This document shows positions 7,715 through 54,060 of a stretch of 64,000 bases of DNA, in pieces. Positions within the stretch are counted from its first letter, which is position 1. Each line of letters starts with the position of its first letter. Source of the stretch: Candidatus Poribacteria bacterium (GTDB lineage Bacteria > Poribacteria > WGA-4E > WGA-3G); NCBI GenBank assembly GCA_028824685.1, contig JAPPCZ010000087.1, forward strand, positions 25,915-89,914, in the 5' to 3' direction. A model generated the notes under the pieces. The model was not told the DNA's origin. It saw only the letters and a program-made list of their open reading frames with translations, and made no database searches. The position numbers and the translations under genes are program-made.

Positions 7715-7805
7715 AGGGAACTCCGATTCCCGACGGCTAATAGGTTGAGTCGTGATTCGGAGATCACTCCCGCTGAATGCCAAACGCGCATTCAGCGTTG
7801 ATTCA
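7715..7805. repeat. cluster of short palindromic repeat modules (GGGAACTCCGATTCCCGAC / GATTCGGAGATCACTCC / GCCAAACGCGCATTCAGCGTTGATTCACAG)
   Basis: The same modules recur at 17600-17640, 47320-47420, 50560-50700 and 53770-53900. Confidence 0.8.
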
Positions 7806-7847
7806 CAGAAGAAGTGTAAACTTATTTTTCCAATTCACTATAAGCAA

Positions 7848-7878: not shown

Positions 7879-7916
7879 TTGTTATACTAGGGTGTGTAAA
7901 GTTTTGGTTATAAGTA

Positions 7917-8353
7917 TCATGCTGCTTGTTTGAGTTCATTCCAATATCTGTCCCACGCCCCATTTTTCACTAAACACCGTAAGGCAAGCACCTTATTGAT
8001 ACCTTCTTTTTTCCATCTCATAACAGCTTGTTTACATCTTTGTCCTACAACATGTTGACACGCACTCTCAATCACACCACTCCCGATATGATACCCTTTT
8101 TCACGAAACACTTTGTATTGCATACGCTCGGCATGTTTTCAAAATACCTCACTTCTCTTTCTAAAATATCCAAAACTTCCGACTGCTGTGCTGCGAAGCC
8201 ACGAATGCATGCTACCACAGCTGTGATGTCCCCATCAAAAAGTAGCGGTTCTGTCGCTTTTAGCCAAGACCCGATAACTTCAATCTCTGTCTCGCCAAAG
8301 GCAACTTCGGTGTCCCACCAGATGCCAGTTGTGGATAATCTTTGTAAACACAA
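7917..8353 (-). pseudogene. truncated, frameshifted DDE transposase remnant (C-terminal tail resembles the ISKra4/ISNCY-group pattern GSGxIES...MRW...LR)
   Basis: 68-aa ORF ...HIGSGVIESACQHVVGQRCKQAVMRWKKEGINKVLALRCLVKNGAWDRYW plus an overlapping 93-aa ORF in another frame. No N-terminal catalytic part is present. Abuts the MITE at 8364. Confidence 0.45.
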
Positions 8354-8363
8354 CCCAACTCAA

Positions 8364-8653
8364 CAGGGTTATTCAGTTTTCAATATTTTTCATGTTTGTT
8401 TGCTATGCCGTTAATTTAATATGTTGCCATCTTGTCCGTGTCTTTAGTCCCGCTGAATGCCATAAGACGAATGCCATACGCGCATTCGTCTTATGGCATT
8501 CAGCGGGACTAAAAAACTGGAAGGGGTACTCGTTTTCTATAAACATAGCGTCCCTACGGGACTAAAGAACAATGTTCATGTTTCTGGGTATTAACTTTCA
8601 GTAAGTCTCAATACCAGAAAACTCTTAAAACTGAATAACCCTGCTAGCTCAAA
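8364..8653. mobile_element. MITE-like non-autonomous element, copy 1 (17-bp TIR CAGGGTTATTCAGTTTT)
   Basis: Perfect 17-bp terminal inverted repeats at 8364-8380 and 8637-8653. Degenerate 9-bp flanks CCAACTCAA / CTAGCTCAA (7/9 match). Contains a 28-bp-arm perfect palindrome (8449-8518) and TAGTCCCGTAGGGACG-family modules. Second copy at 42764-43093. Confidence 0.75.
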
Positions 8654-8671
8654 AACCTCCCTTGACAATTC

Positions 8672-8700
8672 AATCCATACAAGATATAATTAAAGAAACC
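8672..8700 (+). promoter_or_regulatory. consensus sigma70 promoter for trpA
   Basis: TTGACA (8672-8677), 17-nt spacer, TATAAT (8695-8700). Confidence 0.6.
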
Positions 8701-17599: not shown

Positions 17600-17640
17600 A
17601 TTGTTATAGGTCGCGATTCGGAGATCGCTCCTACTGATGG
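17600..17640. repeat. palindromic repeat module GTCGCGATTCGGAGATCGCTCC
   Basis: Same family as the modules at 7760, 47395 and 50566. Confidence 0.7.
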
Positions 17641-20550: not shown

Positions 20551-20619
20551 AGTAAATTATAGTGAAATCTAAATTATCTTTACAGTTCTTTATAGGTTAT
20601 ATGCGTTTGTAGTCGCGTA

Positions 20620-20670
20620 ATTCATTGCGCCTCTTCATGTAGGAGCGACCTCCTGGTCGCGACTTTAAAA
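20620..20670. repeat. palindromic module TGTAGGAGCGACCTCCTGGTCGCGAC
   Basis: Near-identical copy at 39565-39595. A hybrid copy (CTGTAGGAGCGATCTCCGAATCTCGAC) at 50560. Confidence 0.7.
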
Positions 20671-20770
20671 CTGTAGAACACTTTGCAAGTGCGGAGTGAC
20701 AATGTAAATTTAATTGTAAAATCTACCATAAAAGTAAATTTCGTTGCTTTCCTTTGGAGAATAAAAATAT

Positions 20771-28497: not shown

Positions 28498-28720
28498 CCA
28501 TATTTAGTCCCGTAGGGACGAGATGTTTATAGCGCACCATAAAACACCCTTCTTTAGCTCCGTAGGAGCGACATATTCTGATGGATAAACGGATGTAACA
28601 ACATACCGCCCGACAAATGCCATACGCGCATTTGGCGTTGATTCACGGGCTCAAGAACATGTTCACCTTGTTTTCTATAAACATTGCGTCCCTGCGGGAC
28701 TGAAGGGGTTCCATATTTGG
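28498..28720. mobile_element. MITE-like palindromic element (imperfect ~35-bp TIR CCATATTTAGTCCCGTAGGGACGAGATGTTTATAG)
   Basis: The ends are inverted copies of the TAGTCCCGTAGGGACG...TGTTTATAG module. Interior carries GCCATACGCGCATTTGGCGTTGATTCAC. Flanked at a distance by the 22-bp direct repeats GTAGAGCGCAGCGAAACCCTAATC (28349) and CTAGAGCGTAGCGAAACCTAATAC (28746). Confidence 0.6.
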
Positions 28721-28910: not shown

Positions 28911-29254
28911 GCTTGAGTTGAGTAGATGGTCGCGTCCCATAATGGGATGAGGAAAGTCCGGACTCCGTAGGGCAGGGTGCTGGGTAACCCCCAGGAGCGG
29001 TAACGCTATGGAAAGTGCAACAGAAAATAGACTACAACGTATTAAAACGTTGTACAGGTGAAACGGTGCGGTAAAAGCGCACCAGTCCATAAGGTGACTT
29101 ATGGTGCTGGCAAACCCCATCTGGAGCAAGGTAAAATGTGGACATTTAGAGGTGTGCCCGCCTCGTCCCGGGTAACCGCTTGAGGTTAATGGCAACATTG
29201 ATCCCAGATGAATGATCATCATATACAGAATCCGGCTTATTCTCAACTCAAGCC
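28911..29254 (+). ncRNA. rnpB: RNase P RNA, bacterial type A
   Basis: Universally conserved GGAAAGTCCGG...AGGGCAGGGTGCTGGGTAAC, GTGCAACAGAAA, GGTGCGGTAAAAGCGCACC, AGATGAATGA and ACAGAATCCGGCTTA. P1 helix pairs GCTTGAGTTGAG (28911) with CTCAACTCAAGC (29243-29254). Confidence 0.92.
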
Positions 29255-34968: not shown

Positions 34969-35006
34969 ATTCTTAAATTTACTATGTGACATTGAAGATT
35001 TGGGTA

Positions 35007-35084
35007 TTTAGTCCCGTAGGGACGATATGTTTATAGAAACGAAATAAACGTCCTCTTTAGTCCCGTAGGGACGATATGTTTATA
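35007..35084. repeat. two tandem copies of the 29-bp module TTTAGTCCCGTAGGGACGATATGTTTATA
   Basis: Copies at 35007-35035 and 35056-35084. The same module occurs at 8540, 28503 and 42843. Confidence 0.85.
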
Positions 35085-35263
35085 TGACAATACCTAATAT
35101 CCGTGAAAACAACAAAAACAATTAGTTAACTGGCACAAGTCGTTATAGTTGCAAATTATCACAAATTGAATTATAATATTATATCAACTCCGTACAAATT
35201 CACAGATTATAATTGTGATCTGTTTCACAACTGAAACAGGACAAAGGAGTAAAAGATACACTT

Positions 35264-39420: not shown

Positions 39421-39439
39421 AGGTGTATCCATATTGCAC

Positions 39440-39600
39440 AGAGGCATTCAATTGTCGCGAACTTCTCTTATTGGAGGGCTTTGTAAGCCCGACTTAACTT
39501 ACAAACGCGTTTAATGTGGATGTCATACGCGCATTCACCACGCGCAATTTATTACACCTCTTTTCTTCTTGTAGGAGCGACCTCCTGGTCACGACCCCGT
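39440..39600. repeat. intergenic repeat block (CATTCAATTGTCGCGAAC...TTGGAGGGCTTTGTAAGCCCGAC, GTCATACGCGCATTCACC, TGTAGGAGCGACCTCCTGGTCACGAC)
   Basis: First module repeated at 43110-43160. Last module at 20625. Confidence 0.7.
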
Positions 39601-39654
39601 CTAAATGTTAAGAAAAACAAAACTGAATGACTCTGCTATATTACAAATTTTACA

Positions 39655-39683
39655 TTGAAATCGTCCGTTTAATGTGATATAAT
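39655..39683 (+). promoter_or_regulatory. sigma70 promoter with extended -10
   Basis: TTGAAA (39655-39660), 17-nt spacer, TGATATAAT (39675-39683). Confidence 0.5.
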
Positions 39684-42387: not shown

Positions 42388-42693
42388 TTACCGTGCTATA
42401 ATGACCGCATACCGAAGCGGTTTTTCACCCACGTTCCTTATGCCGTGCAAAACTTGACAATCAACATGTACAGCTTCATTGTCACTAACGCGGTGCGTCT
42501 GTTCTCCGAATAGGACTTCACCTTCTCCAGAAAAAACATAGAAAATTTCTTGTCCATCATGTGTATGTGGTGGATGTGCGCGTTGCCCCGGTCCAACTTC
42601 GGAGATGTGTAGATGGAGTTGTTCCGTGTCTGCGCCATCTTCAAAAACGAATCGATCAATACCTTTGATGTCAGTTCTTACTGTTTCTGCCAT
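42388..42693 (-). CDS. cupin-domain protein
   Basis: Cupin motifs HPPHTHDGQEIFYVFSGEG and ...HGI. 101 aa. Confidence 0.7.
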   Translation of the reverse strand: MAETVRTDIKGIDRFVFEDGADTEQLHLHISEVGPGQRAHPPHTHDGQEIFYVFSGEGEVLFGEQTHRVSDNEAVHVDCQVLHGIRNVGEKPLRYAVIIAR

Positions 42694-42763
42694 TCGTAAC
42701 CTCCTTTCTTTTTATTATTCTATCACACTCCTTAAAACCTATCAAGTTGAAAAGACTCTCTAT

Positions 42764-43093
42764 CAGGGTTATTCAGTTTTCAATATTTTTGATGGTTTTT
42801 TGCTATGACGTTAATTTGATGTGTTGCCATCTTGTCCGTGTCTTTAGTCCCATAGGGACGCTATGTTTATAGAAAAATGTTATCTACCTCTCTTGAGTTC
42901 CGGGGAATGCCTAAATGGCATTCATACCGTTGATTTGGTAGGAACGGCATAGAAGATTTAACATATTGTCCTCGCCAAATACAAAACGCGTATTTGGCGA
43001 GGATTCATGGGACTAAAGAACAATTTCATGTTTGTGGATATGAACTTTCAGTAAACCTCAATACCAGAAAACTCTTAAAACTGAATAACCCTG
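42764..43093. mobile_element. MITE-like element, copy 2 (17-bp TIR CAGGGTTATTCAGTTTT) with 9-bp target-site duplication ACTCTCTAT
   Basis: TIRs at 42764-42780 and 43077-43093. Identical direct flanks ACTCTCTAT at 42755-42763 and 43094-43102. The left ~90 bp and right ~50 bp are shared with copy 1 at 8364-8653. No coding capacity. Confidence 0.85.
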
Positions 43094-43104
43094 ACTCTCT
43101 ATCC

Positions 43105-43205
43105 AAAGCCATTCAATTGTCACGAAGTCATCTTGTTGGAGGGCTTTGTAAGCCCGATTTATTACCCAACGGTAGGCGCGTTTTGTAAACGCGCCTACCG
43201 TTGGC
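43105..43205. repeat. repeat modules CATTCAATTGTCACGAAG...TTGGAGGGCTTTGTAAGCCCGAT and CGGTAGGCGCGTTTTGTAAACGCGCCTACCG
   Basis: Copies of the modules at 39445 and 36735/50722/58300. Confidence 0.7.
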
Positions 43206-43316
43206 ATATTTTGCACGTAAAGTGCCTCAAATTGAAACCTGTTCCCAAGTTGCTTTCAACAACTATGTGTGATATACTCTAAACATCAAATATAACGGAT
43301 CCGATGAGACACATCA

Positions 43317-47319: not shown

Positions 47320-47420
47320 GTCGGGAATCGAAGTTCCCGACTACAATACACAAGGTTTCTGCGAATCAACGCTGAATGCGCGTATGGCATTCAGCGGGAG
47401 CGATCTCCGAATCGCGACCT
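47320..47420. repeat. repeat block (AGTCGGGAATCGAAGTTCCCGACT, GCTGAATGCGCGTATGGCATTCAGC, GAGCGATCTCCGAATCGCGACC)
   Basis: The same three module types appear at 7725-7800 and 50560-50690. It overlaps the 5' end of the track ORF 47384, which is therefore probably over-extended. Confidence 0.8.
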
Positions 47421-47479
47421 ACAATATAAATGTTAACACTCCAATAGGTTTCGCAGCGTTTTATCCCTTGCAAAAATCA

Positions 47480-50483: not shown

Positions 50484-50559
50484 TTTCAGATGCATCTGTT
50501 ATAGTAAAATCTAATTGAAACAATTATAGTAAAATTATGTAAATAAGTTTACATATATT

Positions 50560-50750
50560 CTGTAGGAGCGATCTCCGAATCTCGACAAAACGGACTGATA
50601 GTCGGGAATCGGAGTTCCCTCCCGCCAAATCATGCAGAATACCAAACGCGTATTCTGCCAAGCGCATTTGGCGTTGATTCACAGATCAGATGTCCAGTTA
50701 ATTGTAGAATTCACTATAATAGCGCGCTTACAAAGCGCGCCTACAAGGTT
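50560..50750. repeat. intergenic repeat block (CTGTAGGAGCGATCTCCGAATCTCGAC, AGTCGGGAATCGGAGTTCCC, CCAAACGCGTATTCTGCCAAGCGCATTTGGCGTTGATTCACAG, TAGCGCGCTTACAAAGCGCGCCTA)
   Basis: Combines modules seen at 7725-7805, 47320-47420, 36735 and 58300. Confidence 0.8.
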
Positions 50751-53769: not shown

Positions 53770-54060
53770 GTAGGTCGGGTAGAAGCGGTAGCAAAACCCG
53801 ACTTTTTATAGTGTCATGTCCAAATCAACGCTAAATGCGCCAAATCAACGGTATGAATGCCATTTGGCATTCCCGTGTGGCATTTGGCGGGTTTCGTTCC
53901 TCAACCCGACCTACAATATATTATGAAAATTTGTCAATTAGAACGGTATAAATTCCTAAATCAATAGATAAACGCTGATAGGTGAATGTGTAGATTTGTC
54001 AAACTCCGCCTTGGAAATATAAGAGGCGCAATGAATTGCGCGACTACAAACACCGCAAAT
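53770..54060. repeat. intergenic repeat block (GTAGGTCGGGT...ACCCGACCTAC ~140-bp palindromic element, GAATGCCATTTGGCATTC, GCGCAATGAATTGCGCGACTACAAA)
   Basis: Large imperfect inverted repeat with termini CGTAGGTCGGGTAG (53770) and CAACCCGACCTACAATAT (53895-53912). The GAATTGCGCGACTAC module repeats at 54958. Confidence 0.7.

Follow-up and report, generated by a model that had tools for sequence, protein, structure and literature searches.

Insertion 13–17 bp upstream of the −35 element of sigmaA promoters has been described for TnGBS ICEs, for the ISLre2 family and for 13 ISs in the ISKra4 group (Guerillot et al. 2014, PMC3942029). All promoter-targeting elements described in that work encode Mutator-like transposases (p-MULT 3 and 4), and their specificity was called unique and atypical. 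Both orientations were reported for elements with symmetric or near-perfect inverted repeats, and the authors proposed, by analogy with Ty3, that these elements contact the initiation complex of RNA polymerase (PMC3942029). Promoter targeting was also associated there with a motif conserved in the transposases between domains N1 and N2.

The element analysed here lies in a 64-kb stretch of DNA from a Candidatus Poribacteria bacterium (the window, meaning all 64,000 nucleotides of that stretch). It resembles the TnGBS, ISLre2 and ISKra4 systems in being placed at a fixed short distance upstream of predicted −35 elements and in both orientations, at 17–18 bp compared with the published 13–17 bp. 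It differs from them in its probable transposase, which is of the ISAs1 type (IS4-like, DDE_Tnp_1) and not Mutator-like, in belonging to another host phylum and in being found mostly as MITEs. Ty3 at Pol III promoters, the analogy drawn in PMC3942029, is similar in its fixed position upstream of the initiation complex and in leaving the gene intact; however, Ty3 is a eukaryotic LTR element that uses an integrase–TFIIIB contact, and the evidence on the focal element is comparative. The focal element works like the promoter-targeting TnGBS, ISLre2 and ISKra4 families and, with a transposase that is not Mutator-like, is not a member of them.

The ISAs1 family has, in the ISfinder description, ends that start with CAGGG and direct repeats of 8–10 bp, and we take IS1548 to be one of its members. 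An IS1548 insertion is reported to lie 9 bp upstream of the putative lmb promoter (PMC2875397) and also, in a single-locus report, upstream of murB; we treat these single-locus placements as hints only of a promoter rule in ISAs1 elements. Our literature search found no paper linking ISAs1 to a −35 distance rule, and as it covered the searchable literature only, novelty is not proven. A MITE with a TSD is in itself ordinary; what appears to be new is a rule of fixed distance to promoters in a transposase family from which such targeting is not known.

The window copies and their neighbours

The window contains two copies of the element, A and B, with their flanks and neighbouring mobile DNA as follows (TIR, terminal inverted repeat; TSD, target-site duplication).

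42764–43093: MITE copy A, 330 bp, non-coding
42764–42780, + strand: left TIR of copy A, CAGGGTTATTCAGTTTT, perfect (17/17)
43077–43093, − strand: right TIR of copy A, CAGGGTTATTCAGTTTT, perfect (17/17)
42755–42763: left TSD copy beside copy A, ACTCTCTAT, 9 bp, perfect
43094–43102: right TSD copy beside copy A, ACTCTCTAT, 9 bp, perfect
42764–42851 and 43025–43093: left and right arms of copy A that are shared with copy B
43104–43235: second MITE-like element, adjoining copy A 1 bp after its TSD; left end CAAAGCCATTCAATTGT, same family as the element at 39439; right boundary approximate
39439–39635: related MITE, 197 bp, with diverged ISAs1-type ends CAGAGGCATTCAATTGT and CAGAGTCATTCAGTTTT
8364–8643: MITE copy B, 280 bp
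8364–8380 and 8627–8643: TIRs of copy B, both perfect (17/17)
8355–8363 and 8644–8652: flanks of copy B, CCAACTCAA and CTAGCTCAA, 7/9 matching
7888–8353, − strand: probable ISKra4-family IS remnant, truncated and frameshifted, consisting of one end and approximately the last 145 transposase codons
7888–7905: end of the ISKra4 remnant, TAGGGTGTGTAAAGTTTT

The sequence-only reading had described 42764–43093 as a non-coding MITE with perfect 17-bp TIRs and a perfect 9-bp TSD, and we re-found these features at the same coordinates. It had also placed a second copy at 8364–8653; the start of this copy stands, but its true end is at 8643, the longer span having taken in the flanking 9-mer. The shared TIRs, 7/9 flanks and different interior that it ascribed to this copy were all recovered from the sequence. 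With up to three mismatches allowed, there are five occurrences of the TIR 17-mer in the window (0.30 expected), a number reached in 0 of 100 shuffles.

Copies A and B have common arms (left 88 bp, right 69 bp, 93 % identity), between which their interiors differ. The interior of copy A consists of small dispersed palindromic modules, and the modules of the MITE interiors are also present outside MITEs in the window. No ORF of note was found inside copy A; within the 330 bp of copy A and the 280 bp of copy B there are only short spurious ORFs and no transposase gene. As single-stranded DNA, copy A is predicted to fold at −60 kcal/mol (z = −9.5), a stability that is largely owed to its TIRs and nested palindromes. 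An Rfam search of the window and of the element returned nothing relevant, with no match within the element even at E ≤ 1.

Several families of small (25–40 bp) palindromic modules are dispersed through the intergenic DNA of the window, at 7749–7810, 17604–17637, 20605–20734, 28500–28705, 35004–35088, 39564–39595, 47357–47424, 50555–50722 and 53840–53865. Some of these start with GTAG, like REP elements (e.g. GTAGGAGCGACCTCCTGGTCGCGAC), and they occur nested in one another, in MITEs and in the ISAs1 transposase gene of two other loci, L112 and L058. The clusters at 28500–28705 adjoin a bacterial class A RNase P RNA (28914–29254, 285.9 bits). Gram-negative envelope genes are present in the window, identical contigs were found in sponge metagenome assemblies, and close homologues carry the annotation Candidatus Poribacteria. 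Two contigs from independent short-read assemblies of the same organism, L002 and L004, start at window positions 43140 and 8549, at or beside the two MITEs. Such contig breaks are to be expected of multi-copy repeats, and they are a practical cause of fragmented Poribacteria MAGs.

The TIRs of copy B are as perfect as those of copy A. A 7/9 match between its flanks has a chance of approximately 1e-3 by our own arithmetic, and its left 9-mer resembles the orthologous sequence upstream of the promoter. It is plausible that these flanks are a decayed TSD, and the 7/9 match likewise makes it plausible that copy B is older and rearranged. The regions upstream of trpA in orthologues are rearranged upstream of the promoter, and no clean empty site for copy B was found among them.

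The truncated, frameshifted transposase remnant that had been noticed at 7917–8353 (− strand) beside copy B proved to be real and to match the C-terminus of the ISKra4 transposase (NCBIfam NF033572: E = 6e-25, model positions 343–422 of 422; 88 bits against a cutoff of 205, the gene being a fragment). We rejected this remnant as the partner of the MITE because it probably belongs to the ISKra4 family and has a different end (TAGGGTGTGTAAAGTTTT). No intact ISKra4 transposase was found among the loci retrieved. The ends of the two unrelated IS families are alike, with AGGGT...GTTTT common to TAGGGTGTGTAAAGTTTT and CAGGGTTATTCAGTTTT, and the end of a 54 %-identical ISAs1 relative starts with TAGGGT. 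The likeness between ISKra4-type and ISAs1-type ends could be due to chance or to a shared constraint linked to a common target.

A probable ISAs1-family partner and the extent of the family

No autonomous partner had been obvious in the window, and in agreement with this we found no ISAs1 transposase gene within its 64 kb. At several loci, an ISAs1-type transposase gene adjoins a MITE TIR, and a reconstructed transposase protein used as the query led to intact homologues of 383–384 aa. The full-length IS with matching TIRs that the sequence-only reading had proposed to look for was found at three loci, where intact ISs of approximately 1.3 kb carry the same perfect 17-bp TIR at both ends: L118 (1376–2680), L119 (1–1302) and L131 (1–1304), the last of which is a 1304-bp contig that is the IS itself. 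No TSD was found around the intact IS of L118. The partner IS has a single ORF, the product of which contains DDE_Tnp_1_assoc and DDE_Tnp_1 domains. The partner transposases returned 231.6 and 227.3 bits against NCBIfam ISAs1 (NF033564, cutoff 70) over model positions 1–313 of 314, and their identity to plasmid-borne ISAs1 transposases is at most 41 %. One intact transposase, P0001, originates from a metagenome sample other than those that carry the window.

With its end CAGGGTTATTCAGTTTT and 9-bp TSD, the partner IS fits the description of ISAs1 ends, which we compared with one named member, ISAzs22 (ends CAGGGCGATTCAG, that is CAGGGCGATTCAGAGAA and CAGGGCCATTCAAAGAA; 10-bp TSD; the copy examined contains stop codons). 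The ISAzs22 ends confirm that CAGGGnnATTCAG is a family-type end. Compared with the ISAs1 family (taken here as ISAs1, IS1548, IS1358 and ISAzs22), the partner IS is alike in its 1.3-kb length, single ORF, full-length ISAs1 match and CAGGGnnATTCAG ends, and unlike in its TSD (9 bp vs 10 bp in ISAzs22), its large MITE progeny and its apparently strict −35 distance rule.

Elements of intermediate structure connect the IS with some of its shorter relatives. A 634-bp element in L082 retains 453 bp of one IS end and 193 bp of the other, and these long stretches mark it as an internal-deletion intermediate, while some MITEs of approximately 190 bp keep approximately 54 bp of the right end of the IS. 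In the window-type MITE, the sequence in common with the IS ends amounts to only 26 bp and 19 bp, so that this MITE is not a simple deletion derivative. In L112 (6790–6950) and L058 (2520–2650), both from one genome, the ISAs1 transposase gene is split at one and the same position by another small MITE, with TIRs TATCTC[A/C]TAAATAG. The two interrupted genes also share a nonsense codon, which suggests that a dead IS copy was duplicated or mobilised in trans.

An exact scan for the 17-mer across one genome per species (596 Gb) returned at least 113 loci. Among the matches listed, the TIR 17-mer is present at at least 98 loci in 14 Poribacteria assemblies, so additional copies, the absence of which elsewhere would have spoken against the sequence-only reading, do exist. 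We rejected the 15 listed loci outside Poribacteria as family members, as they show no homology past the 17-mer; these are treated as chance matches, approximately 69 of which are expected in 596 Gb by our own arithmetic.

Ends could be paired into 84 elements of 119–1681 bp among the matches listed. The repeats flanking these 84 pairs match at 9/9 positions in 39, 8/9 in 11 and 7/9 in 8, against a match that never exceeded 5/9 in a shifted control. The TSD sequences are mildly AT-rich and without consensus. With dozens of 9-bp TSDs and this control, the family can be taken as real, mobile and producing 9-bp TSDs.

Several MITE subfamilies were recognised that have one common TIR pair and unrelated interiors built of REP-like hairpins. 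Bacterial MITEs such as the MaeMITEs of Microcystis (PMC2779907) are likewise small, non-coding and multi-copy, with TIRs, TSDs and strong foldback, but the elements described here differ in this combination of one TIR pair with unrelated hairpin interiors, in the only 19–26 bp that the window type has in common with the IS and in their probable targeting to promoters. The longest paired element (L031, 1904–3584; 1681 bp) is bounded by the family TIRs and flanked by a perfect 9-bp TSD, AATTTCTAC. Over its first 112 bp it is homologous to the left end of the IS, and it encodes a 423-aa ORF with weak TPR matches in place of the transposase gene; by its structure it appears to be a cargo element that lacks a transposase, similar to a mobile insertion cassette. 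In L078 (2815–3250), a tandem array with a 53-bp period comes after a MITE left end, and its module is also found inside MITEs.

The cupin–acyltransferase region offers a view of the site of copy A in relatives. Orthologues were recovered via proteins of related species (acyltransferase 86–87 % identical), and in L120, L122 and L123 the orthologous site carries a single (G/T/C)CTCTCTAT and no element, within flanks that are conserved in the alignment. The sequence-only reading had considered that relatives might already carry this 9-mer duplicated at the locus; the CTCTCTAT of these relatives is single. For a same-species empty site, an exact-match search of JGI metagenomes gave 0 matches. The cupin–acyltransferase intergenic region is 156 bp in L120, 355–356 bp in L122 and L123, 551 bp in L121 and 623 bp in the window, and these differences arise because three different MITEs occupy the same spot. 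Among the regions compared, copy A is present in the window only; the second ISAs1-type MITE (window 43104 to approximately 43235) is present in L122, L123 and the window and absent from L120; and L121 has a MITE with ISKra4-type ends at the same spot instead of this second element. L121 and L122/L123 encode an identical acyltransferase protein and carry different MITEs (ISKra4-type vs ISAs1-type) at the same promoter-flanked spot, which suggests recent element turnover within one species.

Distance between element ends and the −35 hexamer

Promoter-like sequences, a feature beyond those named in the sequence-only reading, lie close to both window copies and to the related MITE at 39439–39635.

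42388–42693, − strand: cupin gene
42717–42745, − strand: cupin promoter, TTGATA-17-TAGAAT with TG, reading away from the element; distance from the left end of copy A to the start of the −35, 18 bp
8662–8690, + strand: trpA promoter, TTGACA-17-TATAAT (12/12), reading away from the element; distance from the right end of copy B to the start of the −35, 18 bp
39655–39683: promoter, TTGAAA-17-TATAAT; its −35 is 19 bp from the right end of the 39439–39635 MITE

The cupin promoter is conserved in element-free orthologues and pre-exists the insertion, and the trpA promoter is conserved upstream of trpA in L124, L125 and L128. Across the family, we recorded where TTGA starts in the 170 unique outward flanks among the matches listed, and counted 16 flanks with a start at offset 17 and 29 with a start at offset 18 (45 in total), against a background of approximately 1.1 per offset (Poisson p ~1e-30); the other offsets between 0 and 69 give 0–4. 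When the 45 flanks are aligned, the logo displays TTGACA, an extended −10 TG and TATAAT at a 17-bp spacing, with a −10 matching at 5/6 or more positions in 26/45. Neither the TSD nor the 8–9 bp between it and the −35 shows any conservation.

Counted per element, a full promoter-like site is present at offset 17/18 in 22 of 48 independent TSD-bearing elements among the matches listed, vs 0–2/48 at seven control offsets, and it lies on the left side in 9 and on the right side in 13 of these 22. Approximately half of the elements have no recognisable promoter at offset 17/18, with promoters called here, for an uncultivated phylum, by an E. coli-type consensus. The distance rule is also kept by the IS itself, in six (L118, L119, L058, L079, L054 and L082) of the eight copies with this TIR, a set that comprises intact copies, defective copies and copies ending at a contig end. 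For a 54 %-identical relative from a sponge metagenome (TIR TAGGGTCATTTAGTTTT), 2/4 distinct sites show a promoter at offset 19. No promoter at the expected distance was found for one 73 %-identical Poribacteria IS (L132/L133) or for one ISAzs22 copy; to judge from these few copies, the trait may not extend to the whole ISAs1 family.

ISKra4-type ends served as a positive control in the same data, with a peak at 16–18 bp. In many instances the focal MITE lies 6–10 bp from an ISKra4-type end, a gap of approximately the length of its own TSD, as would be expected if a later insertion had gone in between the −35 and an element already resident there.

That the promoters lie outside the element is clear from flanks that differ between insertions, from TSDs directly adjoining the TIRs and from the presence of the cupin promoter in element-free orthologues. 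Together, the flank counts and alignments show that the focal ISAs1-type family lands at a fixed 17–18 bp upstream of putative −35 elements, in both orientations.

A proposed mechanism, its rivals and its meaning

We consider it probable, at approximately 80 %, that the element is a MITE derived from the 1.3-kb Poribacteria ISAs1-family IS and that its target is a position upstream of a sigma70-type −35. The ISAs1 DDE transposase (383–384 aa) would act in trans by binding both identical 17-bp TIRs, and would excise or copy the element and join it to cuts staggered by 9 bp, giving rise to the 9-bp TSD. We infer that the ISAs1 enzyme is the mobiliser because the TIRs of IS and MITE are identical. 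The target would be a position and not a cut-site sequence: the duplicated 9-mer would lie 8–9 bp upstream of the −35 hexamer, bringing the element end to 17–18 bp from the −35, or approximately −53 relative to the transcription start. Either orientation would be possible because the element ends are identical, and as the core promoter is left intact, the site may be a safe haven at which insertion is presumably neutral. The site could be found via the TTGACA sequence directly or, by analogy with TnGBS, via promoter-bound RNA polymerase or sigma. ISKra4-type elements and the second ISAs1-type MITE family would land at the same spot, leading to pile-ups at both window copies: copy B would adjoin the ISKra4 remnant because both families seek the upstream edge of the trpA promoter, and copy A would adjoin another MITE because both seek the cupin promoter.

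Part of this pattern could arise without any target preference, if the element were an ordinary MITE whose proximity to promoters is what purifying selection left once insertions into genes and core promoters had been lost. In mostly coding genomes, surviving insertions are intergenic, where most TTGACA sequences are real −35 boxes, and the co-occurrence of a −10 (≥5/6 in 26/45 flanks) could itself stem from selective filtering. However, selection predicts a minimum distance followed by a broad tail, whereas the flanks display a 2-bp spike (16 and 29, with 0–4 at other offsets); in addition, the control offsets remain at 0–2/48, and ISKra4-type ends, for which promoter targeting is published, spike likewise in the same data. 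Selection may sharpen the distance pattern, but with a spike only 2 bp wide, selection alone is unlikely to explain it, and we regard the absence of any target preference as an unlikely reading. A different proposal is that an ISKra4-group Mutator-like transposase moves these elements by cross-recognising ISAs1-type ends and that the specificity is that of ISKra4. The two end types are indeed alike (TAGGGTGTGTAAAGTTTT vs CAGGGTTATTCAGTTTT, AGGGT...GTTTT), co-occur, often 6–10 bp apart, and have about the same target position, and ISKra4-group elements with symmetric inverted repeats insert on either side of promoters (PMC3942029). We nevertheless judge this proposal quite improbable, given that the 17-bp TIR is the exact end of an IS with an intact ISAs1 transposase gene of its own, the IS copies themselves keep the distance rule, the peak offsets differ slightly (17–18 vs 16–18), the central 6–7 bases of the TIRs differ and an unrelated ISAs1 member, ISAzs22, has CAGGGnnATTCAG as its end too.

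A reading in which the locus is not mobile DNA at all, and is instead a gene for a structured RNA or a cluster of REP/BIME-like regulatory repeats lying between divergent genes, would account for the very stable fold (z = −9.5) and for an interior with terminator-like hairpins and REP-like modules. We find it scarcely credible in view of TSDs at dozens of unrelated loci, presence or absence of the element at orthologous positions, TIRs that are identical to those of a transposase-encoding IS, the lack of an Rfam match at E ≤ 1 and a stability that comes mostly from TIRs and nested palindromes.

Returning to an ISAs1-derived MITE with a promoter-upstream target, a broader evolutionary scenario can be put forward, tentatively and as one possibility. 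The ISAs1 clade of these sponge-symbiont Poribacteria may have independently evolved target capture guided by the promoter complex (through sigma70 region 4, alpha-CTD or polymerase-bent DNA at approximately −45 to −53), in convergence with TnGBS, ISLre2 and ISKra4, and its MITE progeny, with their REP-like hairpins and terminator-like stems, might insulate or rewire the upstream regulation of many genes.

The promoter-distance rule explains why different mobile elements are stacked at the same intergenic spots, and why Poribacteria assemblies break upstream of genes, as in the two contigs that start beside the window MITEs. If the rule holds experimentally, it could inform insertion tools that avoid disrupting genes, and the family would offer a small system, 1.3 kb in length, in which to study how promoters are read by a DDE transposase. 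To our knowledge, no sigma70 promoter has been mapped in the Poribacteria phylum; the insertion sites would mark such promoters in this uncultivated group. A second, unrelated transposase family that targets promoters would, if true, mean that this strategy evolved more than once.
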